A stretch of DNA of 64,000 nt from a phage, in assembly GCA_020241125.1 (NCBI GenBank), contig GCA_020241125.1_4708.1; one strand, written 5' to 3'. Within the stretch, counting starts at the first letter, position 1, and every line of letters starts with the position of its first letter. Below the pieces are notes generated by a model that saw nothing but the letters and a program-made list of their open reading frames with translations, was not told where the DNA came from and did no database searches. Shown piece by piece: positions 2,880 through 62,853 of the stretch. A program made the translations under genes and the position numbers.

Positions 2880-3406
2880 AAGCCCTTAAAACCCGGTGCC
2901 ATAGGTTGCCCAAACACCGCATTCAAAGTACATATGATGTCCTGGATGCCATTGTCCCAATGGAGCCAAGTACGCACCATCTCTTCGTCTGACAACGTGA
3001 TATAACTCATAAGTTTACCGCTGCTTTCCAGGCGTTGGTGTGAACTTAACGACTGACGATCTGACCAGTTATCAATCAATTGACCAGCAATCTGAACGTT
3101 CGTGTCTCGTCTACCCGTGTGAATGAACCGTAGCGTATCACGGATAAACTCCAGACTGGTGAAGTTCAGATTTGGGTTATGGCTGTTCATTTCCACCCAA
3201 TCGGTGATGGGGTACATCAAACGATAAAGGGTAGAAAGAACCTGGCGTTCATATTTCCAGTCATCGAGAGGAGTACCGTCGACCAGACGCTGATACAAAC
3301 TAACAACGTCACGATCGTAGTTCTCCTGGCGTTTTACACCGTTAACCGGAAATCCGAAGAACCCGGTACCGTATAACGTTAAAGGGACGTCACGAAGTGC
3401 ATTCAT
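2876..3406 (-). CDS. Hypothetical protein
   Basis: 176-aa ORF; 4-nt overlap with upstream gene (3403..4305), consistent with translational coupling. Confidence 0.5.
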   Translation of the reverse strand: MNALRDVPLTLYGTGFFGFPVNGVKRQENYDRDVVSLYQRLVDGTPLDDWKYERQVLSTLYRLMYPITDWVEMNSHNPNLNFTSLEFIRDTLRFIHTGRRDTNVQIAGQLIDNWSDRQSLSSHQRLESSGKLMSYITLSDEEMVRTWLHWDNGIQDIICTLNAVFGQPMAPGFKGF

Positions 3407-24171: not shown

Positions 24172-24597
24172 TTAATTCAGTGATGCATATAAGGCATAAC
24201 GACTGTAGATCTCAACCGCCGGTCCGTTATGCGTTAACAGACCGTCTCGGCTGTAATACTGGAAAAATGAATAACGTTTGTCGAAGTGATAAACAAAAGC
24301 AATGTCTTTGCCGTCAAAACCTGTGATGCGTGGTCTGTTTTTATCTAGCAATGCTTTGACTTTTAACAGTGTTGCCGCACGTGCTTTAACGTTAGGGATC
24401 AAGCCATCACAATCGATATAAACAGTGTAACCTGTTTCAGATGTTGCGACGGTCGTATTGCGATTGACGCGGAAGATTTTTGTTTCGTATGTACTATCTT
24501 CAAGAATTGGGTTTTGTTTTTCGTATTTTCGTTTACGCAGAAATTCTACAACGGTGATATAGTTAGCGGTAATATGCCCGGTTATAGCTTGTAACAT
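24172..24597 (-). CDS. Hypothetical small protein
   Basis: 141-aa ORF; preceded by conserved promoter/leader element (copy A) and followed by canonical terminator. Confidence 0.55.
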   Translation of the reverse strand: MLQAITGHITANYITVVEFLRKRKYEKQNPILEDSTYETKIFRVNRNTTVATSETGYTVYIDCDGLIPNVKARAATLLKVKALLDKNRPRITGFDGKDIAFVYHFDKRYSFFQYYSRDGLLTHNGPAVEIYSRYALYASLN

Positions 24598-24771: not shown

Positions 24772-25173
24772 TTAAATGTCGTGGACGGCAATGCCGTTTA
24801 ACCAGCAATACAGCTTAACGCGACAGGAATACCGCTTCGTTGCGGCAACCATTTCATCGCGTAAACGCTGGTATATTTCATCCTGGTGTTCACGATCAAT
24901 GGGGTAATCAGCCCAACATTCGATCATGACGTCACCATTCGTCAGAATCGTCGTACGCATCCTGTCCTGGATACGGCGGTCTTTCCCGGCATTAGGGAAA
25001 TACATTCCTTCAGTACGAATAAGGTCGCCGCAAGGCATGACTAACCATTCGTTCGTTTTGCCGGTATTCTTATAATCCATTACAGCTTGCATTGCGGTGT
25101 CAACGCTAAAAGAAACATAATTCCAAACGGATGTCCAACGATAGATTGCGGGTTGTTCGAGTGTTTCGTTCAT
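24772..25173 (-). CDS. Hypothetical small protein
   Basis: 133-aa ORF. Confidence 0.5.
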   Translation of the reverse strand: MNETLEQPAIYRWTSVWNYVSFSVDTAMQAVMDYKNTGKTNEWLVMPCGDLIRTEGMYFPNAGKDRRIQDRMRTTILTNGDVMIECWADYPIDREHQDEIYQRLRDEMVAATKRYSCRVKLYCWLNGIAVHDI

Positions 25174-25387: not shown

Positions 25388-26014
25388 TTATGCGAAGCGA
25401 CGCATGTAACCTGCCAGATAGTTACGTGTATCGAAGTAAGCAATTTCAGGAATTGCGATATTAAGGTCGATAGCACGGATTTCAACCTGGCGACGGCTTT
25501 CATCATAGATCGCATCCATCAGACGCAGTACTGTCAGGAAAGCCATGCGGGTATGGTAGTCCAGCGGCATGTTATCGATGCCACGATACAGATAACGGTT
25601 TGCATTAAATGCTCCTTCGCTGTTATCTTTCCAGATCTTCAGAATATCAGCAAAGGCGGTGCGGAAAACCTCAGGATTATCCACATCCAGTAACGCACGG
25701 AAGGCAGACATTAAAGACCGCTGATGGCGGATCAACGACTGCGGTGTTTGCGGCATGGTCGGACCCATTTCTTCCGCATATTTCTGGAACGGGGCAACCA
25801 GGGTTGCGGCACGAGAAGCCACGATAGAAACAGCAGGCGATTCTTTCACCGCTGGTTTCGCAGGCTTTTCTTCAACAACGGTTTCCTTCTTCTCAACAGC
25901 GACCGTTTCCGGCTGTGCTACAACATCACCAACCGGAGCATCTGCAACGGTGGTTTCTACCGCAGTAATCTCCTCGTCCATTTTTGCAGAACGTTGGTCT
26001 TTATTCTTGCTCAT
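25388..26014 (-). CDS. Hypothetical protein with acidic low-complexity N-terminus
   Basis: 208-aa ORF; AAGGAAATAAAC upstream of ATG. Confidence 0.5.
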   Translation of the reverse strand: MSKNKDQRSAKMDEEITAVETTVADAPVGDVVAQPETVAVEKKETVVEEKPAKPAVKESPAVSIVASRAATLVAPFQKYAEEMGPTMPQTPQSLIRHQRSLMSAFRALLDVDNPEVFRTAFADILKIWKDNSEGAFNANRYLYRGIDNMPLDYHTRMAFLTVLRLMDAIYDESRRQVEIRAIDLNIAIPEIAYFDTRNYLAGYMRRFA

Positions 26015-26039: not shown

Positions 26040-27341
26040 TTAACTAATATAAAGTTCGGGATCGTAAGGCGCTAACGATACACTGGCGTTATGCATTGCT
26101 TTCATCATAGTGTTCATGAAAACGTTGTTTACACCGGTGATCTCTGCCCCGATCGCGTCTGGGGTTGGAGCCATCGCGTTACCGCAACAGGTAGCACAGT
26201 ATTCCAGTGGGCCTGCTTTACAACGTTGAGGATCACGTAACTTGATGGTCTGTCCTTCCAAGGAAGCAAGTAATTCAGCATCAATAAGTTTAAGCGCTGC
26301 GCCGTCGATCATGTAACGGCCGACAAGCAGCTTATCTTTGATATGATCGCGGTTTACCGTGAACAGAATATGTTCGTGGGTACCACAGTCGTCCATCGTG
26401 ATTTTAAGGTTCTGTGTCGCACGTTGTGATTCTTTCGCCGTCTGTCCCGCTAAAGCGGTCAGTGCGCCACGTGAGAACGAACCTGCACGTGCGCTGTTGT
26501 TGTACTCCGCCCAATGGTCGACACGCATCCCTTCAGCCAGGCTGTGTGTGATAACGTTACGTTTACCAGGGTCAACGAAGTCGGCTTCAACCCCCATCAT
26601 GATGTGCGTTTTCTTTCGAGTATTACCGAAACTCTTACCGGGGTTAATATAGAACCCTTCCGATTCATCACCCTTAAAGGATTCCTTATCCATTTTGGTC
26701 AGCGTGGCTTCGAGTTTGATCAGTTCTTCAGGCGTGAACTTACCTTCCTCTTGTAAGCGTGCTAACTCTTTATCGCGATAGGCAATAATATCATCATCGA
26801 CCGTTAACGCTTTATCACTCATTGATGGAACAATTAAACGGTTGATAGCGGTTAACGCACTAATATTGTTGGTGAATTTCTTCACTTCGCTTGCGTACAA
26901 CGGACCAATTGGACGTTCGTTAGGATCGGGTATTCCCTCTTCAGGATCGTCAGCGACGCGTGGCGCAATCAGTGACTCCAGTGTACCGCTGGTCAACCGT
27001 CCTGCCTGGTATTCAATCTGAATACCGAAAGCATCATAAAGGACGTACATATTGAACAACGCTTCACCGAAGGTTGTGGTGGTTGTATTCTTAACCGACG
27101 GTAGATCACCAGGTGCAAGCTCCAATGGCTCCCAGAAACTCAACAGGGGTTTTGTTGGCTCGGTTTCCCATTGGTGTTCTTCACCGTCGATGGTAACCGT
27201 AACGACGTTACCTTGACGACGTAATTTAGGCTGATACTTCTCAGCGCCGCCTTCCGTAAAAGCAAATGCGTCGTTAATCCATTCAAGATAACGGTAGTGC
27301 CCTTCACGCATCGCGTAAAGGAAATATTCACGAGGTGTCAT
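26040..27341 (-). CDS. Hypothetical protein with C-terminal Cys cluster
   Basis: 433-aa ORF; Cys cluster CKAGPLEYCATCCG suggests metal binding; otherwise unrecognised. Confidence 0.5.
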   Translation of the reverse strand: MTPREYFLYAMREGHYRYLEWINDAFAFTEGGAEKYQPKLRRQGNVVTVTIDGEEHQWETEPTKPLLSFWEPLELAPGDLPSVKNTTTTTFGEALFNMYVLYDAFGIQIEYQAGRLTSGTLESLIAPRVADDPEEGIPDPNERPIGPLYASEVKKFTNNISALTAINRLIVPSMSDKALTVDDDIIAYRDKELARLQEEGKFTPEELIKLEATLTKMDKESFKGDESEGFYINPGKSFGNTRKKTHIMMGVEADFVDPGKRNVITHSLAEGMRVDHWAEYNNSARAGSFSRGALTALAGQTAKESQRATQNLKITMDDCGTHEHILFTVNRDHIKDKLLVGRYMIDGAALKLIDAELLASLEGQTIKLRDPQRCKAGPLEYCATCCGNAMAPTPDAIGAEITGVNNVFMNTMMKAMHNASVSLAPYDPELYIS

Positions 27342-27354
27342 GTAACAACTCCTT

Positions 27355-28233
27355 TTAAACCCGGGTCAGGTCACCGTGACATGAAACGAACTCTGATAAC
27401 GCTCGGGTTGCTTCTTTGGATTCTTCAGCCATCGGGAAGTTTGCGGTAATAAGTTCTCGTAAGACAGGGACGAGTTCATTATCTTCGAGATCGGAAGCTA
27501 AGGCGAATGCAATCAGTTCTTGGGTGTATGCATACGGTTGCTGACGTAATGCAGTAAGCTGATCCCGACACTGCGACATTAGCAGGTCCAGTGGAACCGC
27601 TATCGTACCCCCTTCATCAATATACTGGCTGAACACTGGTGGGAACGCATCGCTGATGACACGAATACGTCGACGAATATGATCCGGAATCTGGACGTTT
27701 TCTTCATCGACGACGTTTTCGCTATCTTTCTCCAGCTTCTTGGTCAGTACCTCTTGAATGCGTGGAAGTAAGCTTGAATGCACGAAACCGATTAATGGGG
27801 TTACGTTAACAGCATCAACGCCGTAAATATAATGCGCGCATTCCGCTAGCGCTTCAGCTGTGGTGTAGTCTTCATCTTCAACGATAGCGAGTAGAAAAGC
27901 GGTATCGTCGTGTGTTTCCAGGTCTAATAACGTAGACGCTAGCGCATGAAGATATTTCAGGCTATCCAGAGTTAGCTGCCCTTCGTTAATTCGGATCCCG
28001 AAGGCAAGCAATTGTTGTTTATAAAGTTCGATACATCCGTTTGTTAAAATGATGTCTAATTCGTTTAAATCGTATTGTTCCCCAGCACCTGACAACATCG
28101 TACTGCAGAACGTTTCCAGTTGTTCACATTTAAAATCTTGGTATAAACGATGTATGCAGTGCTGTAACAGCGTACGCCTTGTTTCAGGGATCTTACCTTC
28201 TAACAAAGCCAAGACGGAATCAATCATATCCAC
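27355..28233 (-). CDS. Hypothetical protein
   Basis: 292-aa ORF; ORF-track start is GTG, true start probably the ATG 6 nt downstream. Confidence 0.5.
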   Translation of the reverse strand: MDMIDSVLALLEGKIPETRRTLLQHCIHRLYQDFKCEQLETFCSTMLSGAGEQYDLNELDIILTNGCIELYKQQLLAFGIRINEGQLTLDSLKYLHALASTLLDLETHDDTAFLLAIVEDEDYTTAEALAECAHYIYGVDAVNVTPLIGFVHSSLLPRIQEVLTKKLEKDSENVVDEENVQIPDHIRRRIRVISDAFPPVFSQYIDEGGTIAVPLDLLMSQCRDQLTALRQQPYAYTQELIAFALASDLEDNELVPVLRELITANFPMAEESKEATRALSEFVSCHGDLTRV

Positions 28234-28323
28234 TCCGATGCGGTAAATGTCTACTAGCTCTCATAATCTATTGAAGAAACTACCAGCTTACGCCAACTTA
28301 GATTAATCAGGAGTAACCATCCC

Positions 28324-28797
28324 ATGCCAGTTTCATCCAAACCAAGAAAAAAATCCGTAGGAAACCCTAAAGCTCAGGAAACAACAGCAATTCGTTGGGA
28401 CGAGTTACGTGAACCTATCGAAAACTGCGAATTGTTATTAGGTACCCTGGGTGCAGCTATTTACCAAGCGACGCAACCCTGTCGTTTACGATTAACCCAA
28501 AACAAACGTGATGAGTTCGTTGCATTATCAACAAGCACGAATAAAGATCTGACCGAACTTCAAACCGAGTTGACGACGATCAAGAACTCCATCACGCCGA
28601 TGTACGGTAAAGAAGTTGATGAACAAAGTATTCTGTTACAGTACAACTACGGGATGTCGTTAATGAACATCCTGGAACGCGCATCCGATATTCTGCGTCC
28701 TGACGTTGCACGCCTAAGCCAGCTGCGTGTCGAAGGGATGGAGAACCAGATCCGATTCGCTAACAGTGTTAAATCTCAAGGAGCCACCGAAGCATGA
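28324..28797 (+). CDS. Hypothetical protein
   Basis: 157-aa ORF; AGGAG about 11 nt upstream; 4-nt overlap with next gene. Confidence 0.5.
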   Translation: MPVSSKPRKKSVGNPKAQETTAIRWDELREPIENCELLLGTLGAAIYQATQPCRLRLTQNKRDEFVALSTSTNKDLTELQTELTTIKNSITPMYGKEVDEQSILLQYNYGMSLMNILERASDILRPDVARLSQLRVEGMENQIRFANSVKSQGATEA

Positions 28798-30458
28798 GCG
28801 AACAAGAAAAAGAAGTCGTGACGAATCAGGAAGCCGTTGAGCGTTCAGAGTCGTCCGTTGAAACAACGATTCCGGCAAGTTCCGAGCCTGTTGGTTCCAC
28901 ACAGCAGGAAAGTAAAGACGAAGTAGTGGCTCCAGAAGCAACCCGTGAAGAAGAACCATCACATCCACCGCTGGTCGATTTCTCGAAGGCAACGATACGT
29001 TTCCAATGCGAAGACATTCGTCCTAAGAGTCCGAAGAAAACAAAACGTCAGCCGTTGGTGTTACCGCTGTATTCTCCACGTGTGCAGACAACGTATTACC
29101 GGGAATACATCAACGAAGCAATGGATACCGTGCAAGCCATTGTCGCTCAACGCGGTAAACCGACAGACGAACAATTTGATAAATTCAGTAAAGCGGTGGT
29201 GCAATCGGTTGCTGATGGACAATATCATCCGCGTGGCCCAGCTCACGATCGCGCCTTGGAACGTAAGGGCAGTCAGTGGACTAACGTACCCGTAGACTCA
29301 TCGGGTGTTGGTCGCGTTATTCCTGGCATTCCACAACCGAACCATATCCCTGATGATGTCGAAGCGCCGCTGACAGGAACCGATGCGATCTATTTTGCCA
29401 TCCGTAATACGAAATCAGGTGCGCCTGCGGTAATGCCGTTATGGCATAGCGGTATTAAGCTGCAGTTTAATCCGCCGTCAAATGAACGTGTTGCAATTAT
29501 GCACGAACGTATTGCACGCGATAAAATCCTGGGTGGACGTGATAGTACCGGTTTCCTGTTTTCAGCAACCTCGATTATCACCATGAAGCACGCTATCGAA
29601 TTAGCATTAGAATGCTGCTACATGGCCAACGTACCGAACCTGGATATCCAGCGTTTGAAAGACATTATTCCGGTTACCGATGTTCCAGCGTTATTGCTGA
29701 ACGTGCTGGTAACCATGTACCCGTACGGATATCCTTACGTACAGACCTGCTATCAGAATCCAGAAACCTGCGACTATCGTGTTGAAGATACCGTAAGCTT
29801 TGCGAAACTCTATCAAGTTGACAACAGCGCGATAACCAAACGTATGCGACAGATCATGACCGAAGGTCCGGTCATGACGGATGAACTTTTGCGTGAGTAT
29901 GCAAACGAACTGGGTGAAACAAACTCCCGTACGCTGGATCTGTCCGACAACGGTTCTGTTATCATTGAACTTGAAGTACCGAAGATTTCACGTCAGATCG
30001 CCATGGGCGAACGCTGGTTAAGCGATACCCTGGAAGATCTGCGTGATATTCTATCGCGTCCGTCAATGACCGAAGAAGAGCGTGATCGTGTTATTCGTGA
30101 ACGTCAGTTCTATAGCTGGATGCGTCAGTATGATGCGTGGATCAAATCGATGCACGTGTCAGTAAACGGTACCATGCGTCGTGTAAGCGATGCAGATACG
30201 GCAACGGTATTAGCACAGCTGTCACGAGACAGCGACCTTCGTGAACGTTATATTGACGGGTTGATGCAATTCATCGGTGATTCGACGATTGCGCTCGCAG
30301 CGATGCCTGCCTGGAAATGTCCGAAATGTAATGCCGATATTGCTGACAATCTGCGTGACCAGAAATACTACGATCTGATTGCTTTGGATGTACCCCAGCT
30401 TTTTTTTACCCTAAACTCCGTCCAATCTCTTCAGGAGGGGATGGACGCGGTATTCTAA
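28794..30458 (+). CDS. Hypothetical protein with C-terminal CxxC motif
   Basis: 554-aa ORF; acidic N-terminal tail; WKCPKCNADIADN near C-terminus. Confidence 0.55.
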   Translation: MSEQEKEVVTNQEAVERSESSVETTIPASSEPVGSTQQESKDEVVAPEATREEEPSHPPLVDFSKATIRFQCEDIRPKSPKKTKRQPLVLPLYSPRVQTTYYREYINEAMDTVQAIVAQRGKPTDEQFDKFSKAVVQSVADGQYHPRGPAHDRALERKGSQWTNVPVDSSGVGRVIPGIPQPNHIPDDVEAPLTGTDAIYFAIRNTKSGAPAVMPLWHSGIKLQFNPPSNERVAIMHERIARDKILGGRDSTGFLFSATSIITMKHAIELALECCYMANVPNLDIQRLKDIIPVTDVPALLLNVLVTMYPYGYPYVQTCYQNPETCDYRVEDTVSFAKLYQVDNSAITKRMRQIMTEGPVMTDELLREYANELGETNSRTLDLSDNGSVIIELEVPKISRQIAMGERWLSDTLEDLRDILSRPSMTEEERDRVIRERQFYSWMRQYDAWIKSMHVSVNGTMRRVSDADTATVLAQLSRDSDLRERYIDGLMQFIGDSTIALAAMPAWKCPKCNADIADNLRDQKYYDLIALDVPQLFFTLNSVQSLQEGMDAVF

Positions 30459-30520
30459 TCGATCCGCGATACGGGTTACATGACGGACAACTTGTTCGTA
30501 ATGATGAAAAAATCTGGGAA

Positions 30521-30880
30521 TTGCTATTAGCCCGTAAAGGCGACGGTGGCATGAAACTGAACATCGAAATGGGTATTGCGTACGATACCATGTTTGGCTT
30601 GTACGATCGTGTTAACGACTGGACGCCGTTGAAATGGGTTGCTCAGCATCCCGCTGAAGATCCCTGGGACAGATTGGGGATTAAACCCTTAATCGAAGAT
30701 TATGTCCGATTCGGTATTAAAGAGTTCATGACGCTGGATGCGTTTTTACAAGCACCGTATCCTTACGCGCAAACGGTACTCAAAATCGCACAAGACGAAC
30801 TGCGGAAACGTAGTGCGGTACTGGACGACGATGAGGACAAGTTACGACGAGAAGAAGAACGTTTACGAAACGGAAAATAA
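30521..30880 (+). CDS. Hypothetical small protein
   Basis: 119-aa ORF; start may be internal Met (MKLNIEMG). Confidence 0.45.
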   Translation: MLLARKGDGGMKLNIEMGIAYDTMFGLYDRVNDWTPLKWVAQHPAEDPWDRLGIKPLIEDYVRFGIKEFMTLDAFLQAPYPYAQTVLKIAQDELRKRSAVLDDDEDKLRREEERLRNGK

Positions 30881-30881
30881 A

Positions 30882-31391
30882 ATGGCGAGATTTACCAGTT
30901 TGATTGGGTTGGATATTTGGGAAACACCGGCTGACGTTCGGGTTATTCCTGTTAACACCGTCGGTGTGATGGGACGTGGTCTTGCCAAACAGGCAGCCGA
31001 TCGTGTACCCGGTCTTCTTGAAGCGTACCGTAAGCAATGTCAAGATGGGTTTAAGGTGGGCGAAGTCGTGTCGTATCAACACGGTGATAACGATCAACTC
31101 ACCTACGTGTTGTTTCCATCAAAATCGGATTGGCGTGAAAGAACACGACGCGAGTATATCGTTAACGGTTTACTGGCGTTAAAAGCATGGTTACTGGAGC
31201 TTCAGTTCGAAAGAGACGGCTTCTCATATCGGCGTCCGGCTGAACCGCTGATCGTTGCAATTCCTCCGGTTGGTTCTGGTTGCGGTAATATCGGTTACGG
31301 ACAATCCGAAACAATCCAGCCTCAGTGGGTACGCGCACAAATCAAACAGTATCTTGCCACCGTACCGAACGTTCATTTCTACTTGTTCTAA
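30882..31391 (+). CDS. Macrodomain protein (TARG1/DarG-like ADP-ribose processing fold)
   Basis: MARFTS... start immediately after stop of upstream gene; VIPVNTVGVMGRGLA, KVGEVV and IAIPPVGSGCGNIGY...W align by eye with TARG1 CISEDCRMGAGIA, KSGEVAV and MPRIGCGLDRLQW; the longer ORF-track start (30738) overlaps the upstream gene. Confidence 0.55.
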   Translation: MARFTSLIGLDIWETPADVRVIPVNTVGVMGRGLAKQAADRVPGLLEAYRKQCQDGFKVGEVVSYQHGDNDQLTYVLFPSKSDWRERTRREYIVNGLLALKAWLLELQFERDGFSYRRPAEPLIVAIPPVGSGCGNIGYGQSETIQPQWVRAQIKQYLATVPNVHFYLF

Positions 31392-31407
31392 CGCAACGGT
31401 AACATAA

Positions 31408-31439
31408 CCCTCTCCCTTCCCTGCTGGGTTGGGAGAGGG
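31408..31439. terminator. Conserved palindromic hairpin (member 8) at convergent junction
   Basis: CATAA-CCCTCTCCC-ttCCCtgctGGGtt-GGGAGAGGG-cTTATG. Confidence 0.6.
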
Positions 31440-31456
31440 CTTATGCTGTTATGCTA

Positions 31457-31831
31457 TTAATGTTCGTTCCAGATGGCATCTTCCGGTGGAACAATAGGAT
31501 CTTTCTTCGGCATTGATGGCACTTCATGGCGATGTTTACGGAACTGCCTATCAATAACCTCACGAAGCCGGTACGCATCAACCCATGTTGATTTATTGAA
31601 CAGCTCCAATGTCACAGTTAATCGTGTTCTTGACATTGAATAGCTTTTCTTTGCAATCAAATTGGGATAATTCAGTTGAGCGAACCACGCACGTATTTGT
31701 GCTTCGGTAAAAGCGATGCTGTAATAACTAAGTTTACCGTCATTAAAATCGTGCGCGTGGGTGTAACGTCCAGCGTAACGCCAGACAAGATGCACATTCA
31801 GATCGATCCATGGTGGGGTGGTATCAGCCAT
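31457..31831 (-). CDS. Hypothetical protein
   Basis: 124-aa ORF. Confidence 0.45.
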   Translation of the reverse strand: MADTTPPWIDLNVHLVWRYAGRYTHAHDFNDGKLSYYSIAFTEAQIRAWFAQLNYPNLIAKKSYSMSRTRLTVTLELFNKSTWVDAYRLREVIDRQFRKHRHEVPSMPKKDPIVPPEDAIWNEH

Positions 31832-32431: not shown

Positions 32432-35044
32432 TTAAGCGTCCGGCGTAAAATCAAAAGGAATGTCCGTACGAATGATATCATAACGTTTTCCGAGGAAATA
32501 AAACTCTTCGGGAACCTGACCGGGAATAATGCTATCACCGATGAACTGCGGATACGCCCAGATGTACTGAGTGAGTCCTTCGAACATATCCAGGTTATTT
32601 GCGTGGTTACCCATGATACGTTTCCAGAGTTCGCGTTTATACGGCGTTTTAACATCGAAACCATAAAGCGGTGCAAGATCTTCACCAGGAACAAATCCCA
32701 GGTAATAGTGAATCTGACTAACCGGGAAACCAAGCGTATCTCGCGGAATGGTGATCGCTTGCTCAGCTTTGGTGACATGCGTTTCAATAATCCAGTCGTA
32801 ACACTCTGAATAGAACCGATCGAATTTCTCTGGATTATACCACGCTTTGGGAAGATTCAGTTTCTCCGTGAACGCATTCGACATGATCGTCGGTAAGAAC
32901 GGAAGAACACCGGTTTTGATCTGCGTGTATTTCGATTTTACCCGGTTAACCAAATTCCAGCAACTGTATCCTAACTGTTCGTTACAAAACTCAACGTAGA
33001 GATCGTAATCACCGCCGGATAATGGGTTGTTGATATCACCAATGTCTGCAGCGTATTTGTTGGGATATCGGTTATTGAAAGCCAGTTTGGTTTGGTAATC
33101 GTAGATACACGGTTTGTTGTTCGCTGTATTGATCCACCACCAGGGTTCACCCACCTGTACACAAATGTCCTGGACATGAGGGTAAATAATATCGGCAAAC
33201 GCGGTTAACACATCCCCTAACCACGCCATCGCCTGTTGGTTACATGGAGACAGCAACCAGGACGGTGGTGTATATCCGGTTGCTGCGATGTTTCCTTCCC
33301 AATCCTGCTGCGCCCACTCGAACGGGCAGGCTGTACTCATCAATTCGTAACTTAAACTGATGGTGACAGAGAAATGGTGTTTTGCAGCATATGCGGCGAA
33401 AGCTTCATGCCACGCGATACAGGGTGGATTTAATACATCCGTGGTGTTCACCAGTAACTTACCCGCACTTGGCGTCCAGACAGTATCGTAGAAATGCGAC
33501 ATTCCAACATAATGCACTAATTCATCTTGATACCCCGCATAAACCAGGTTCTCAAATACACGCTCTGGCGTGATGTTGTAATGGTCATCGTAAGCGGTTA
33601 TCGCACGAAGTTCGTGTGGTGTACAGTGGTGACGATTAACCGTCATTTCCTGATACACCCCATCGATAGGAAGAATCTCGAGGGTTAAACCGAGGTCGAT
33701 TGGCGTTTCCAGATAGGTCGTTTCAGTCGCACCTTCCTTATAATGTCGAGAACTCATGCTGAACATCAACGATGCTACCGATTCGAGTTCGATAGGCTCG
33801 TCAGCATAGAACCCCGCCATTGCGTCATTGAAATCGATCGTTACGATTGCGCTTCTACCGTCTTCAGAGACATCGGTGGCGTATCGGGTTAATGAGATAT
33901 ACTGACGGCTATCGTCTTTGTGTACGACGGTTAAAACCGGCGGGTTTTCGGTATCTGCAAAGTTACGCTGATCGCCAGTAAACGTGATCTTCGCTTTAAA
34001 GATCAAACCGAATAACGACGTCATGGGATCATACGCAATACAACCGTGATCCAGCGTATCCGTTGTCCGCCATTCTATCCCGACCAACCCGTTAGCGGTA
34101 TGGCATCGCATATACGCATTAAGGACCATGTCTTCACTGACAACCGCGAAGTTCTCTGTTGACTGACCGTTGATAATCCAATACATCGGTTGCCAGAGGT
34201 TACGCGTACCTTTTGCGTAGCGGTAGGTTGGTGCGCCTTTAGGGTTGCCGTTATTGAGATGGAATACGGCAGTACCTTGATAATGGTCGTTCGTATTAAT
34301 CGGAACACTGTAAGCGTCACCGAGGTCCGTACGTTCCACCTTCGTGACCGTTGCGTTTTCAAATAACCCACGCAACGCTGGTAAACCGATATCTTCAGGC
34401 GCGTTTTCTCGACGAATCGCATCCGCGATGCGATGGGCTAAGGCGGGGTAAATAGCTTCACCCTGTTGTAGGTTTGCAAGACCTACAAAGCGATCAGGGT
34501 CGATACCAGCAATCAATAACTCAACATCACCCTTCGTTCTATCGTCGTTAAGATATTTCAGTCCGGTAAGGTCAAGATGCTGAATAAGCGACAACAGGTT
34601 GTATTTACGGTTTTCAACAGTTAGTACAAGATCGCCTGCCCAAACCAAACTTCCCTCATCCGCTGTTACTTTAACGGATTGTCGGCCTGTGGTAGACGTT
34701 GTTGTCGTTTTATTTAATTGTCCTTGTAGGAAGTCGGTTGCGAGGTCAAAGGCAATACCGTAACGGTCAGCGACCGCTTGCATGATTTCACGTAACTGGG
34801 TATCTTCTTCAATGATAATCTTGACAGGTATTCCCAGGAACGCTTTAGCGAGGTCTCGTTTAACCAACGAGACGAATACGGATTTGTAGTATCGGCTTCC
34901 ATCTTTCCCTTTAAAAAGAATGGAGGTTGTTTCGGGTGCCGATAGAACACGTGCAAATTCAACATCGTCGAAAGTAAGAGAAAGTCCGTTTTTCTCGTTG
35001 GTCAATCTTAGTATTTCATTTTGCGCGGTTTCATGTAACTTCAT
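32432..35044 (-). CDS. Receptor-binding protein (tail spike/fibre) with shared N-terminal anchor domain
   Basis: 870 aa; N-terminal ~110 aa (Y..VKRDLAKAFLGIP..I....YGIAFDLATDF) homologous to N-termini of the 40698, 41384 and 46786 products. Confidence 0.55.
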   Translation of the reverse strand: MKLHETAQNEILRLTNEKNGLSLTFDDVEFARVLSAPETTSILFKGKDGSRYYKSVFVSLVKRDLAKAFLGIPVKIIIEEDTQLREIMQAVADRYGIAFDLATDFLQGQLNKTTTTSTTGRQSVKVTADEGSLVWAGDLVLTVENRKYNLLSLIQHLDLTGLKYLNDDRTKGDVELLIAGIDPDRFVGLANLQQGEAIYPALAHRIADAIRRENAPEDIGLPALRGLFENATVTKVERTDLGDAYSVPINTNDHYQGTAVFHLNNGNPKGAPTYRYAKGTRNLWQPMYWIINGQSTENFAVVSEDMVLNAYMRCHTANGLVGIEWRTTDTLDHGCIAYDPMTSLFGLIFKAKITFTGDQRNFADTENPPVLTVVHKDDSRQYISLTRYATDVSEDGRSAIVTIDFNDAMAGFYADEPIELESVASLMFSMSSRHYKEGATETTYLETPIDLGLTLEILPIDGVYQEMTVNRHHCTPHELRAITAYDDHYNITPERVFENLVYAGYQDELVHYVGMSHFYDTVWTPSAGKLLVNTTDVLNPPCIAWHEAFAAYAAKHHFSVTISLSYELMSTACPFEWAQQDWEGNIAATGYTPPSWLLSPCNQQAMAWLGDVLTAFADIIYPHVQDICVQVGEPWWWINTANNKPCIYDYQTKLAFNNRYPNKYAADIGDINNPLSGGDYDLYVEFCNEQLGYSCWNLVNRVKSKYTQIKTGVLPFLPTIMSNAFTEKLNLPKAWYNPEKFDRFYSECYDWIIETHVTKAEQAITIPRDTLGFPVSQIHYYLGFVPGEDLAPLYGFDVKTPYKRELWKRIMGNHANNLDMFEGLTQYIWAYPQFIGDSIIPGQVPEEFYFLGKRYDIIRTDIPFDFTPDA

Positions 35045-40697: not shown

Positions 40698-41225
40698 TTA
40701 TCCCGGGTAAATAGTGATGACATCACCGATGACAGTTGCCGCACCGGCGCAAAGATACGCTGGTGATGTATCACGCTGGTTTGTCACGATAAGATCCAAT
40801 TGCCCACGCCAAACCATGGAGGTATTCGCGATGGGAATCGAGATCTTCTTGGAAGTATCGTCACGAAAATTAATGGCGGTAGCAAGGGTAGCTGAATCAA
40901 AATCAACGTCGGGTTCAAAGTTGAAACCGTATTGATCCGAAATAGCTTGAATAACCGCTCTTATGGTTGTTGTTTCAACCGACTCCAAAACGATTTTTAT
41001 CGGTATTCCTAGAAATGCTTTCGCTATATCACGCCGTGTGTAAGTGATAAAACTTTCACCACACCACCTTGTTCCTTCATTTGCTGTGACGATCACTTTT
41101 GCCCTGTTAACACCAGAACTCCCATCCAGGGTTAAAGTGAGATCGGAGTTGCTGAATACACTACTGTTACGTTGGTTTATCAACGTAATAAGTTCGTCTT
41201 TCCATGGTGGGTAAAGTGAACGCAT
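40698..41225 (-). CDS. Short protein carrying only the shared receptor-binding-protein N-terminal anchor domain
   Basis: Start set at ATG 41225 (MRSLYPPWKDE) preceded by GGAGGAGGG; ORF-track start at 41408 would run through the upstream hairpin; product shares RRDIAKAFLGIPIKI...YGFNFEPDVDF with other RBP N-termini. Confidence 0.5.
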   Translation of the reverse strand: MRSLYPPWKDELITLINQRNSSVFSNSDLTLTLDGSSGVNRAKVIVTANEGTRWCGESFITYTRRDIAKAFLGIPIKIVLESVETTTIRAVIQAISDQYGFNFEPDVDFDSATLATAINFRDDTSKKISIPIANTSMVWRGQLDLIVTNQRDTSPAYLCAGAATVIGDVITIYPG

Positions 41226-41338
41226 AAGCGCACCCTCCTCCAACAATCGAATTAATATGCAAAAACGCCTCGAAACAGGAGTGCGATTCGAGGCTAACGT
41301 AAACAGTCTTAACGACCGCATAAAATTCCGCGCATATT

Positions 41339-49251: not shown

Positions 49252-49500
49252 TTAAAATGCATTGATTGGACTGTTCAACGCTTTATCACGGATTTGAATC
49301 GCCGCCAGCATTGCTTTCTGGTACGAATCGTAGGCATCGACAGAAACAGTCGTATCAACCAATTCCTTTAATGCGGATTCAGCCGCTTTTACACGGACGC
49401 GGAACTTGGTGATTGCGTTATCTTTGTTACGATAAACCGTGATGTGGTGCAGCGGTTGAACTTTGGTTTTAACGGATTTAGTTGCTTTGATCGTTTTCAT
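49252..49500 (-). CDS. Hypothetical small basic protein
   Basis: 82-aa ORF bounded by hairpins on both sides. Confidence 0.45.
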   Translation of the reverse strand: MKTIKATKSVKTKVQPLHHITVYRNKDNAITKFRVRVKAAESALKELVDTTVSVDAYDSYQKAMLAAIQIRDKALNSPINAF

Positions 49501-52487: not shown

Positions 52488-52805
52488 TTAGTTTGCACGT
52501 AAGAAATGACCTAGAACCGTTACAATTGGAAACAGTCCTGTAACCGTATTATCACCCGAAAACATCATCTTTGAGTCGTTAACGGTGATGAAACGGATGT
52601 CGGTTGCGGATCCGTCGATAGCGACAAAACGCATTGAGTTCGGTGGAAGATCCTCAACAACTTCCACGAGGTGTTCACGATTTTCAAAGGCTTCTTTAAC
52701 ACGACGCATGAAACGAATCAATGTTCCTTCAGCGTCGGCTTCCAAATGACCTAAGATATCGCGATTATTGCGAATAGCGAATACAGACATTTTAAACATA
52801 CACAT
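52488..52805 (-). CDS. Hypothetical small protein
   Basis: 105-aa ORF; preceded by conserved promoter/leader element (copy B). Confidence 0.5.
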   Translation of the reverse strand: MCMFKMSVFAIRNNRDILGHLEADAEGTLIRFMRRVKEAFENREHLVEVVEDLPPNSMRFVAIDGSATDIRFITVNDSKMMFSGDNTVTGLFPIVTVLGHFLRAN

Positions 52806-55386: not shown

Positions 55387-56112
55387 TTAAGACGTTGCCA
55401 TCTTATCTTCCAGAGACTTCTTCGGTAAACCATGGATAACTCCTTCCGGGGTTAAGAACACACAGTCTGGATTCTGCGTTCGCGAACGGTCGTCTGGAGT
55501 GTTCAACGAGAACAACAACGCAGAAATACCTTTCGTCCGGTTTAACGTCGCTACGATCACGTCAAGCTGCCGTAGTGCATCCGATACCGTTCGATGAGGA
55601 ACGATACGTGACTGTTTGAAGCTGGCTAACCGCCAAGTCTCGAACAAACAACGCAGTTTAAACACGTCAGACGGAACAGCAGTAGATCCCTGTTCGATAA
55701 CCTCAACCCGATCAGCTTCAGGATAACCTACGGCAACCGCACTAAAGTGTCTTACCCCATTATGAAAATCATCGATAGATGCTTCAGCGTATTTACATAC
55801 CGTGCCAGAAACGACCATCACTTTTGCTAAACCGCGATAATTGATCGTCAACGGAATACGAAATACACGTAAAGCATGTTCCGGATTTAATGAGACGTCG
55901 TTAACCTTCGTTGCGGTCAGCTTACCACGCTCGTAACGTGCGGTGAACGGCAGCCCGTCATAAACGGGATTGATTACAACGCCCCCTGGGGAGGCGTTAG
56001 CGTTAAGATGGACATTAAGCCAATCGGATACTTCCTGTCTACTAGTTACGATTAACATAAAACGGTCCTCCATTTCTTTTCCTTTATTCATGACGAGTAT
56101 CTTCCAAATCAT
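55387..56112 (-). CDS. LigA-like nucleotidyltransferase-domain protein lacking the catalytic lysine (candidate pseudo-ligase)
   Basis: NPVYDGLPFTARYERGKLTATKV and RVFRIPLTI align with [23 protein letters not shown] and the downstream region of the full-length LigA in this window, but the KxDG lysine is replaced by Val. Confidence 0.4.
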   Translation of the reverse strand: MIWKILVMNKGKEMEDRFMLIVTSRQEVSDWLNVHLNANASPGGVVINPVYDGLPFTARYERGKLTATKVNDVSLNPEHALRVFRIPLTINYRGLAKVMVVSGTVCKYAEASIDDFHNGVRHFSAVAVGYPEADRVEVIEQGSTAVPSDVFKLRCLFETWRLASFKQSRIVPHRTVSDALRQLDVIVATLNRTKGISALLFSLNTPDDRSRTQNPDCVFLTPEGVIHGLPKKSLEDKMATS

Positions 56113-56734
56113 CCCTTTGTTTTGTAAATTCTGATTGCTTGCGATAAACCGTCCACGAATCGTATATGCCGTGAAAGTTCAAATGACGTGCATTTAAGTT
56201 AACGGTGAATTCTTCCACAGAGGAGAAATCCGAACGAAGCATCGAATGGAAGGCGTCATCTCCGGTGCAGCCCCCGTATCCCTCACCCTGATAGATCAAA
56301 AGCTGATGTGGTTGAATACGCGCGGCAACCAGCGCAGCTTGTGGTTCGCAGTAAGGCGGCCACGACAGTAAAATAACATCGTACTGTGAAAGATCGATGT
56401 TCGTGTAGTCGACCTGCTGAATGTCCTCGATAAACGGGTGGGGATGTAATTCCGTATCGTAGGCGGTAACGTCCTCAACACCAAGTTTACGTAGTACATA
56501 AGTCAGGTAACCTGTCCCACAACCCAAATCAGCGACACGTCGCCCGTAACAGATATTCGCTAACTGGAGCGCGGTATCCATGGTTAACAACGACCATCCA
56601 ATGTGCTGGGTACATTCTTCACGCACACTCCATTGTTGATGGTACGTCATGGGTTCTATGATACTAGCAAGCTGCTGGTACGGCAATGGCATTCTGGTTT
56701 CGCCTTGCGTGAGTAATGCAATAACGTTGTTCAT
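56084..56734 (-). CDS. Class I SAM-dependent methyltransferase
   Basis: Motif I VADLGCGTGYL, acidic residue after beta-2 (AYDTE), and YDVILLSWPPY. Confidence 0.6.
   Translation of the reverse strand: MNNVIALLTQGETRMPLPYQQLASIIEPMTYHQQWSVREECTQHIGWSLLTMDTALQLANICYGRRVADLGCGTGYLTYVLRKLGVEDVTAYDTELHPHPFIEDIQQVDYTNIDLSQYDVILLSWPPYCEPQAALVAARIQPHQLLIYQGEGYGGCTGDDAFHSMLRSDFSSVEEFTVNLNARHLNFHGIYDSWTVYRKQSEFTKQRDDLEDTRHE

Positions 56735-60162: not shown

Positions 60163-62853
<2,691 letters not shown>

Follow-up and report, generated by a model that had tools for sequence, protein, structure and literature searches.

Three plus-strand genes lie directly upstream of a macrodomain gene in a phage contig, and they raise the question of what they do and whether the macrodomain belongs with them. 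The window analyzed here (the whole 64,000-nucleotide stretch of contig GCA_020241125.1_4708.1) represents a Goslar-like chimallivirus: its DNA is 97% identical to that of Escherichia phage Goslar, and the genes of the locus match the annotated Goslar coding sequences gp080, gp081, gp082 and gp083, whose names are used below (Table 1). The sequence-only reading of this locus had described an uncharacterized operon of 157-, 554- and 119-aa products, and had proposed that together with the macrodomain it forms a functional unit, such as a nucleic-acid repair or ADP-ribosylation-related system.

Table 1. Features of the gp078–gp083 locus. Positions refer to the window; a dot marks features without strand.
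Feature	Position	Strand	Description
gp078	26040..27341	-	Virion RNA-polymerase (vRNAP) beta'-type subunit, cg20, phiKZ gp80; PHROG 2962, E 6e-106
gp079	27355..28227	-	cg19 ortholog (phiKZ gp79, head protein); BLASTP vs phiKZ gp79, E 1e-6
Intergenic region	28234..28323	.	Divergent: gp079 (minus) / gp080 (plus)
gp080	28324..28797	+	157 aa, ATG start; 100% identical to Goslar gp080
gp081	28794..30458	+	554 aa; orthologous to core gene cg18 of chimalliviruses
Acidic disordered N-terminal tail of gp081 (residues 1–85)	28794..29048	+	pLDDT ~30, pI 4.8
Candidate two-repeat zinc domain of gp081 (residues ~210–554)	29421..30455	+	gp26/gp51-like (PF12322-like)
First cysteine pair of gp081 (C319, C326)	29748..29771	+	Co-varies with C509 and C512
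Second cysteine pair of gp081 (C509-P-K-C512)	30318..30329	+	The CxxC motif; invariant F537-F538 downstream
gp082	30551..30880	+	109 aa from ATG (119 aa from the alternative TTG)
gp083	30882..31391	+	169 aa, DarG-like macrodomain; ATG one base after the gp082 stop
GC-rich hairpin	31408..31439	.	From sequence; Goslar annotates a terminator at the same position

Organization of the Locus

The operon begins at a divergent intergenic region, which should be the site of promoters for both operons facing away from it. The same divergent layout is found in phiKZ, PhiPA3, 201phi2-1, LucasX, Desertfox and other phages. A ribosome-binding site (AGGAG, 28309–28313) is located 10 nt 5′ of the gp080 ATG, and a late-promoter-like TTATG motif within the region is oriented toward gp079 only.

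The open reading frames were found where the sequence-only reading had placed them, with one correction: the third product is likelier to be 109 aa than 119 aa long, as the Goslar annotation and the family alignment both favor the ATG at 30551 over the TTG at 30521 as the gp082 start. The genes overlap or abut as described, with successive gaps of −4, 92 and 1 nt between gp080, gp081, gp082 and gp083, the start of gp081 overlapping the end of gp080 by ATGA. Between the four genes there is no GC-rich stem-loop of the type found in other intergenic regions of the window. The first hairpin encountered is a strong one 3′ of the macrodomain stop, with CATAA at one flank and CTTATG at the opposite one, which ends both the plus-strand operon and a converging minus-strand operon. 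Co-transcription of gp080–gp083 is plausible from this layout.

On the other side of the intergenic region lie gp079 and gp078. The gp079 homolog of phage 201phi2-1 (gp138) is a virion protein by mass spectrometry. The Goslar virion paper names gp078 as a subunit of the vRNAP, and tblastn found it in 14/14 loci searched.

A Conserved Three-Gene Module Containing cg18

Orthologs of gp081 include phiKZ gp77, PhiPA3 gp074, 201phi2-1 gp136, RAY gp267 and SPN3US gp39; the tblastn match to phiKZ (PHIKZ077) has E 2e-28 and spans residues 74–545, or 85% of the protein. Searches by tblastn reached 158 phage records with gp081 and 242 with the family consensus, all of them jumbo phiKZ-like or SPN3US-like phages, and clustering the family at 50% identity gives 1,717 clusters. 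Table S3 of the core-genome work assigns Goslar gp081 to cg18, labels it "hypothetical protein" and places it in core block 3 beside cg19 and cg20 (PMC10299810). The nucleus-forming jumbo phages have about 70 core genes, most of them, cg18 included, with no assigned function. Literature searches turned up no experiment on any member of the family, and none of the papers found mentions the small genes flanking cg18, its Cys4 site or its gp26/gp51 likeness, all described below.

In 15/15 related genomes or contigs, cg18 forms an operon with one small gene upstream and another downstream, so that the operon is conserved in all chimalliviruses examined. The description of the locus as an uncharacterized plus-strand operon stands. 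In the window, in Goslar and in 14 other loci the neighbors of the three-gene operon are cg19 and the gene for the vRNAP beta' subunit, in divergent as well as co-directional arrangements.

Both partner genes are small and fast-evolving, and were not listed by the earlier core-genome work; they now join the conserved module. The product of gp080 is small and helical, has a basic stretch (MPVSSKPRKK) at its N-terminus and contains a WDEL motif; it yielded no match in Pfam, NCBIfam or PADLOC. It occupies the position of phiKZ gp78 and PhiPA3 gp75 and is probably homologous to them: hhalign comparison of the upstream genes of the Goslar clade with those of other chimalliviruses gave a probability of 90% (E 1.6e-6). 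For the downstream genes the same comparison gave 98.8% (E 1e-16). Homologs of gp082 are phiKZ gp76.4, PhiPA3 gp073, 201phi2-1 gp135 and SPN3US gp40, and the motif aYD..fGi..H...P...hP.ED is conserved in this downstream partner. It matches PHROG 12109, of unknown function; taken together, gp080, gp081 and gp082 matched only function-unknown PHROGs when compared with Pfam, PHROGs, NCBIfam and PADLOC.

Architecture of gp081

The acidic N-terminal tail noticed in the sequence-only reading is confirmed, being predicted as disordered and represented by poly-Glu in the family consensus. A peptide covering residues 42–65 was detected by mass spectrometry of a Goslar virion preparation, so that this stretch of the tail is kept in at least some copies of the protein. 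In the AF2 model (pTM 0.71, core pLDDT 75–94) the tail is followed by a helical N-domain (~99–205) and a C-terminal domain of ~345 aa, carrying an insertion at ~336–377. The latter domain consists of two similar units, each comprising a beta-hairpin, helices and a strand–cysteine pair–strand element.

The WKCPKCN sequence that had been singled out as zinc-ribbon-like is present at residues 507–513 and appears to belong to a zinc site, but its CxxC is, judging by covariation, only half of a Cys4 site. Residues C319, C326, C509 and C512 behave in an all-or-none manner: 138/173 family members carry all four (CCCC), one (1/173) has HCCC and 34/173 have none, with all four cysteines lost in the RSF1-like subclade. 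We suggest that the two pairs jointly bind one structural zinc ion.

A catalytic role for H218, found in the motif LWHSG, was considered and rejected; this residue is 87% conserved, and P, C, G or A takes its place in some clades. Few polar residues of gp081 are invariant, a pattern that does not point to an enzyme.

Resemblance to T4 gp26 and gp51

Sequence searches of the PDB with the single gp081 sequence and with a profile found nothing, and the AF2 model matched nothing there either. A Foldseek search of the 554-aa protein, a check that the sequence-only reading had put forward, matched several BFVD entries whose annotation reads "Baseplate hub assembly protein, bacteriophage T4-like"; their E values were 1e-3 to 6e-3 at probability 1.0, and the TM score on the target was 0.36–0.53. 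Intermediate BFVD matches form a ladder from 1e-20 to 1e-4, and three of them are labelled "Baseplate protein".

The T4 proteins gp26 and gp51 both belong to PF12322 (E 9e-64 and 4e-52, respectively) and are both classed as hub assembly chaperones (PMC3004832). In PF12322, C82, C187 and C190 are invariant, C84 is near-invariant, and a C-terminal Phe (F205) is present. As in gp081, a Cys4 set arises from two distant cysteine pairs, and a helix containing a conserved Phe comes after it at the C-terminus; the two-repeat architecture and an (A/I)(V/I)P..KCPxCG motif are shared as well. The analysis also suggests that PF12322 is itself an internal duplication around one Cys4 site. When the AF2 model of T4 gp26 (pLDDT 92) is compared with residues 210–554 of gp081, the secondary-structure elements follow in the same order, the strands that enclose each cysteine pair correspond, and the second hairpin is succeeded by a conserved Pro.

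Profile similarity to PF12322 is weak but exceeds chance. Aligned by hhalign, the gp081 family and PF12322 score 34–37 (P 2-4e-4, z ~8 against shuffled profiles), a level reached by 0/60 column-shuffled controls (mean 15, sd 2.5, max 24); reversed controls scored 17–18. The C-terminal half of gp081 aligned to the PF12322 halves with P 3.5e-5 and 2.4e-4. The hhalign probability is only 34–72%, and the register is ambiguous, since the CPxC of gp081 can be aligned with either of the two cysteine pairs. Zinc-knuckle repeats common to both families could raise the hhalign and Foldseek scores alike. Searches by hmmsearch between the two families gave weak matches in inconsistent registers. PF12322 had no match in 14 gp081-family members even at E<=1, and the NCBIfam models of the gp26/gp51 family had none among members of the gp081 family. 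The protein also differs from its T4 counterparts in being ~2.5x longer and in having the acidic tail, the helical N-domain, the ~336–377 insertion and two conserved small partner genes.

Possible Function of the Module

We tentatively favor, at somewhat less than even chances, the view that gp081 assists virion assembly as a non-structural chaperone, most likely acting on the baseplate hub. Its C-terminal domain would then have the T4 gp26/gp51 fold in a greatly expanded and diverged form, presumably as a true homolog of PF12322. The protein would be a cytoplasmic factor, non-structural or present in very few copies, that assembles the T4-like hub of the contractile tail, with gp080 and gp082 as possible co-factors. 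In Goslar the baseplate hub is very similar to the T4 hub, and the hub and inner-baseplate density has been fully assigned, none of it to gp081. This parallels T4 gp51, which is missing from the solved baseplate as gp081 is; it is needed for assembly and absent from the particle (PMC3004832). A hub-chaperone role predicts, if true, that knockdown would produce filled heads without tails, and cg18 thereby gains its first testable functional hypothesis.

The gene neighborhood fits this proposal less well. In T4, genes 26 and 51 adjoin 25, 27, 28, 29, 48 and 54, whereas the gp081 gene is not found among hub genes and has as its constant neighbors the head protein gene cg19 and the vRNAP gene. This adjacency, kept in either orientation arrangement, speaks for an unlikely alternative, namely that gp080–gp082 help to assemble or load vRNAP (and cg19) into procapsids, or travel with vRNAP and act as infection begins; the fold resembling gp26/gp51 would then have been reused as a general assembly chaperone. 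Also in its favor, copy estimates from the Goslar virion preparation, which weigh against the hub proposal, are about equal for gp081 (14.6–34.5) and vRNAP gp078 (14.1–33.2), and SPN3US gp37, whose gene immediately precedes the module, is incorporated into virions only in the presence of vRNAP. However, that Goslar preparation is contaminated by non-virion proteins, containing also chimallin, PhuZ and thymidylate synthase, the last at a similar estimated level. Moreover, the gp081 homologs of phiKZ and 201phi2-1 are not marked as virion proteins, unlike their neighbors cg19 and cg20, a point that also speaks for the hub-chaperone reading; the SPN3US virion study never mentions gp38–gp41; and the N-terminal region of gp081, unlike a head propeptide, is not removed by cleavage. 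If true, a vRNAP-linked role predicts defective vRNAP content or early transcription. In its strongest form, which we consider quite doubtful, gp080–gp082 would be a previously unrecognized assembly machine in which the T4 hub-chaperone fold has been reused to assemble or load vRNAP and other ejected proteins such as cg19. Such a machine would account for genes that in all lineages examined have remained beside those for cg19 and vRNAP beta', and would be the first known factor for placing a multisubunit RNA polymerase in a phage head. [quoted passage not shown] A paralogous relation of gp081 to this subunit was considered and rejected: searches of the PDB, where structures of such subunits are deposited, showed no similarity, a result that also counts against the vRNAP-linked role.

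It is also unlikely, in our estimation, that the likeness to gp26/gp51 is convergent, produced by two zinc-knuckle repeats, and that cg18 has an unrelated role, for example in the nuclear shell, replication or transcription. The missing Pfam match, the ambiguous hhalign register and the lack of a PDB match for the model are compatible with convergence. A link to the nuclear shell is hinted at by the upstream partner PhiPA3 gp75, which appears in a ChmA proximity-labelling list, and by the chimallin-associated proteins that co-purify in the Goslar preparation. Yet this list names ~100 proteins and is not specific, and the gp081 ortholog itself, PhiPA3 gp074, was not found in either proximity-labelling list, as judged from part of the table and from an accession search.

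The Macrodomain Gene

The remaining proposal, that all four genes constitute one nucleic-acid repair or ADP-ribosylation system around the macrodomain, we regard as highly improbable. It draws on the macrodomain start 1 nt after the gp082 stop, on the position of the first hairpin beyond gp083, and on a gp082/macrodomain arrangement kept in relatives down to 47–51% identity. The wider distribution is against it. A macrodomain directly 3′ of the operon occurs in the Goslar clade only (the window, Goslar, an 88%-identical contig and a 51%-identical contig). In LucasX it lies ~1.4 kb downstream of the operon, behind a terminator, and in most chimalliviruses, including phiKZ-like phages, Psa21, PS119XW, SA002, EarlPhillipIV and others, it is 25–127 kb away from the gp081 homolog. 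Macrodomains of the same type are also encoded by phages in which tblastn found no gp081 homolog, e.g., the phiEco32-like group. Because the linkage is confined to the Goslar clade, a functional unit with the macrodomain is unsupported; co-conservation, whose absence the sequence-only reading had named as refuting the idea, was not found. Nor does the content of the operon point to repair or ADP-ribosylation: Pfam, NCBIfam and PADLOC revealed no ADP-ribosyltransferase, nuclease, repair or toxin domain in gp080, gp081 or gp082, and the scarcity of invariant polar residues in gp081 counts against such a system as well. A macrodomain-centered system is thus largely refuted by distribution, and gp083 is a lineage-specific 3′ addition outside the conserved module.

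The gp083 product matches Pfam Macro (E 2e-5), NCBIfam antitoxin_DarG (E 8.6e-23) and PADLOC DarG (E 4e-22); in the Goslar annotation its start is placed further upstream, making the gene longer and overlapping gp082. Whereas DarG, the DNA ADP-ribosyl glycohydrolase antitoxin of the DarTG system, has 330–340 aa, gp083 consists of the macrodomain alone, the DarG matches cover the macrodomain part, the score is under the NCBIfam antitoxin_DarG cut-off, and no DarT gene is located nearby. The macrodomain is more likely a stand-alone gene, with a predicted DarG-like counter-defence function.

A three-gene module conserved in the chimalliviruses examined

The source phage is closely related to Escherichia phage vB_EcoM_Goslar, which belongs to the nucleus-forming jumbo phages (chimalliviruses); positions 28000-31500 of the window are 97% identical to Goslar 90037-93537. 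All three ORFs reported upstream of the macrodomain gene by the sequence-only reading were found, and they represent Goslar gp080 (157 aa), gp081 (554 aa) and gp082. The first two overlap by 4 nt. For gp082 we favour the ATG at 30551 (109 aa), which Goslar annotation and the family alignment support; the previously chosen TTG at 30521 (119 aa) is possible. The type of GC-rich stem-loop seen between genes elsewhere in the window is absent between gp080, gp081, gp082 and the macrodomain gene gp083, so a single transcript is plausible.

Features in the window and in compared loci
Feature	Position	Strand	Remarks
gp080	28324-28797	+	
gp081	28794-30458	+	core gene cg18
Hairpin in gp081	29854-29877	+	TCATGACCG-AAGGTC-CGGTCATGA
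gp082	30551-30880	+	
gp083, macrodomain gene	30882-31391	+	ATG 1 base past gp082 stop
GC-rich hairpin	31408-31439		3' of macrodomain stop; Goslar annotates terminator there
Hairpin-TTATGC element	31403-31445		
Similar elements	upstream of genes 70-1386, 24772-25173, 40698-41321, 49252-49500, 56084-56734, 62542-62826		
Paired-leader genes	24172-24597; 52488-52805	-	
Goslar gp077 equivalent	25388-26014	-	95% identity to Goslar protein; 79% in 88%-relative contig
Goslar gp086 equivalent	32432-35044	-	870 aa; DUF7941, NCTSP_N, TIM-barrel_NCTSP domains
SPN3US gp37	L017 (SPN3US locus) 2998-3381		adjoins operon of upstream gene, cg18, downstream gene
T4 genes 26 and 51	L016 3803-4429 and 4480-5229		

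gp081 is an already known, uncharacterised core gene, cg18, listed as a 'hypothetical protein' grouping Goslar gp081, phiKZ gp077 and RAY gp267 (Prichard et al. 2023). Pfam, NCBIfam and PADLOC searches gave no match, its PHROG (4585) carries no functional assignment, and a literature search turned up no functional statement on any family member. Homologs were detected by tblastn in 158 phage records (242 with the family consensus as query), and those among the matches listed all belong to phiKZ-like or SPN3US-like jumbo phages; they include phiKZ gp77, PhiPA3 gp074 and 201phi2-1 gp136. An exhaustive HMMER search placed the family at 1,717 clusters at 50% identity, those listed being full length.

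Synteny was compared in 15 related loci, including two metagenomic or assembly contigs; the named phages are Goslar, phiKZ, PhiPA3, 201phi2-1, LucasX, pEa_SNUABM_54, Proteus phage 10, Desertfox, Vibrio sm033, RSF1, Moabite, EarlPhillipIV, SA002 and SPN3US. A small gene lies directly 5' (114-231 aa) and another directly 3' (75-182 aa) of the gp081 homolog in 15/15 loci, and in all 15 the trio adjoins cg19 (head protein, phiKZ gp79) and the gene for a beta'-type subunit of the virion RNA polymerase (vRNAP). The trio is mostly divergent from this pair, and co-directional with it in EL-like and SPN3US-like phages. Both small genes evolve rapidly; in profile comparisons, those of the Goslar clade match their counterparts in the other loci with a probability of 98.8% (E 1e-16) for the downstream gene and 90% (E 1.6e-6) for the upstream one. 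Given these shared flanking genes and profile links, gp080, gp081 and gp082 constitute a three-gene operon common to every chimallivirus examined (15 loci), of which only cg18 figures in earlier core-genome work. The three-gene module, a covarying Cys4 site and a probable kinship with T4 gp26 and gp51 are new here.

Anatomy of gp081 and its Cys4 site

In the AF2 model of gp081 (pTM 0.71), residues 1-84 are disordered, ~99-205 are helical and an alpha/beta core from ~150 to 550 is confident. The acidic N-terminal tail noted earlier is real: the family consensus there is nearly all Glu. Its length differs even between very close relatives; a 98%-identical variant (355 member sequences, 561 aa) has 7 extra residues inserted at about residues 48-55.

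Across 173 aligned sequences, invariant positions are mainly Gly, Pro and aromatics, with D296, Y369, W408 and F537 conserved in 100%, and the histidine of 'LWHSG' in only 87%; this pattern is unlike that of an enzyme active site. Cysteines C319, C326, C509 and C512, in pairs ~185 residues apart, co-vary: 138/173 sequences have all four, 1/173 has HCCC and 34/173 have none, the CxxC segment being deleted in these 34. The RSF1-like subclade dispenses with the site. The CxxC motif, previously read as zinc-ribbon-like, thus supplies one half of a Cys4 site, which presumably binds zinc and has a structural role. A perfect 9-bp hairpin in the gp081 coding sequence is probably incidental.

Likeness to T4 baseplate hub assembly proteins

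The Foldseek comparison proposed for the 554-aa protein, run against BFVD, returned chimallivirus orthologs (E 1e-26 to 1e-15), other myovirus proteins (1e-20 to 1e-4; three named 'Baseplate protein') and several proteins of 260-285 aa named 'Baseplate hub assembly protein, bacteriophage T4-like' (E 1e-3 to 6e-3, probability 1.0, TM on target 0.36-0.53). T4 gp26 and gp51 are both members of PF12322 (T4_baseplate), whose alignment of 62 sequences has invariant C82, C187 and C190, a nearly invariant C84 and a conserved Phe near the C-terminus, the same layout as in gp081. The AF2 model of T4 gp26 (pLDDT 92) runs through a beta-hairpin, two helices, a helix, strand-cysteine pair 1-strand, a beta-hairpin followed by a conserved Pro, a helix, a beta-hairpin, two helices, strand-cysteine pair 2-strand and a C-terminal helix. 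Residues 210-554 of modelled gp081 follow the same order; their helices are longer, and a single insertion sits at ~336-377.

HHalign of gp081 against PF12322 scored 34-37 (P 2-4e-4), compared with a mean of 15 (sd 2.5, maximum 24) for 60 column-shuffled controls and 17-18 for reversed ones. PF12322 (alignment A4) looks like an internal duplication, with a hairpin, helices and strand-cysteine pair-strand in each repeat and both pairs making a single Cys4 site. This fits the match of the gp081 C-terminal half to both PF12322 halves (P 3.5e-5 and 2.4e-4), and accounts for the ambiguous register of the alignment. Although the failure of every Pfam and NCBIfam model to reach gp081 and HHalign probabilities of 34-72% count against it, we consider remote homology to T4 gp26/gp51 likely.

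Possible function of the module

PMC3004832 lists T4 gp26 and gp51 as hub assembly chaperones; of the two, gp51 is indispensable for assembly, does not occur in the particle and is described as 'of unknown function'. In Goslar, the hub and inner-baseplate density is fully assigned, with gp081 nowhere among it; in phiKZ and 201phi2-1, cg19 and cg20 (the vRNAP subunit) are marked as virion proteins, and the gp081 and gp080 homologs are unmarked. Mass spectrometry of Goslar virion preparations detected gp081 at an estimated 15-35 copies, with a peptide from residues 42-65; the preparation also has chimallin, PhuZ and thymidylate synthase, the last at an estimated level similar to gp081. Most parsimoniously, gp081 would act as a non-structural or trace-level chaperone in virion assembly, with gp080 and gp082 as putative partners; by homology, its target would most likely be the baseplate hub.

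The main rival ties the gp080-gp082 module to vRNAP and cg19. It draws on the invariant neighbourhood, in which cg19 and the vRNAP gene are always adjacent, and on SPN3US gp37, encoded immediately 5' of the module and present in virions only when vRNAP enters: this 127-aa protein is reportedly missing from virions on vRNAP beta subunit knockout (PMC5105663). Overall, the findings offer a testable lead for a core jumbo-phage gene, not a new kind of system.

The macrodomain gene

The macrodomain gene lies directly 3' of the gp082 homolog in Goslar, an 88%-relative contig and a 51%-relative contig (97%, 90% and 47% macrodomain identity, respectively). LucasX carries one of 29% identity ~1.4 kb downstream, beyond a predicted terminator and another gene. 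Elsewhere, coordinates of both genes place it about 34-35 kb from the gp081 homolog in phiKZ-like phages, 37 kb in PS119XW, 39 kb in Psa21, about 25 kb in Centimanus, 120 kb in SA002 and 127 kb in EarlPhillipIV; phiEco32-like phages have the same macrodomain type, with no gp081 homolog found by tblastn. Co-conservation, the lack of which the sequence-only reading named as its refutation, thus fails across most of the family; a macrodomain-centred interpretation of the operon, with trio and macrodomain as a functional unit, is not supported.

The macrodomain gene is most plausibly an accessory gene in its own right, with homologs scattered across chimalliviruses, SPN3US-like and phiEco32-like phages. 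Its best matches, covering the macrodomain part only, are to DarG (NCBIfam NF048014, E 8.6e-23; PADLOC DarG, E 4e-22), a DNA ADP-ribosyl glycohydrolase antitoxin. It may be a stand-alone counter to DarT-type DNA ADP-ribosylation.

Other elements in the window

Goslar gp077 was identified as the capsid decorator protein (2026 Goslar cryo-EM preprint). gp086 has DUF7941, and a DUF7941 'filament cloud' surrounds the baseplate (Goslar virion paper); the 51%-identical relative has three DUF7941 genes at the gp086 position, versus one in the window.

Several intergenic stretches carry a GC-rich hairpin with (T)TTATGC directly after it; at the convergent junction past the macrodomain gene, the hairpin has the motif on both strands (CATAA-hairpin-CTTATG). 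A terminator scan recovered none of these elements because they have no T-run. phiKZ late promoters contain TATG; the element could combine a terminator with a late promoter, or else TTATG might belong to the terminator.

The paired-leader genes have near-identical leaders, …CAATCCAATATAA(A/G)AGGATGTCAAGATG, both preceded by (A/T)CTA(C/T)ATTACCT, similar to the phiKZ early-promoter consensus TATATTAC; they may be early paralogs transcribed by the virion RNA polymerase.
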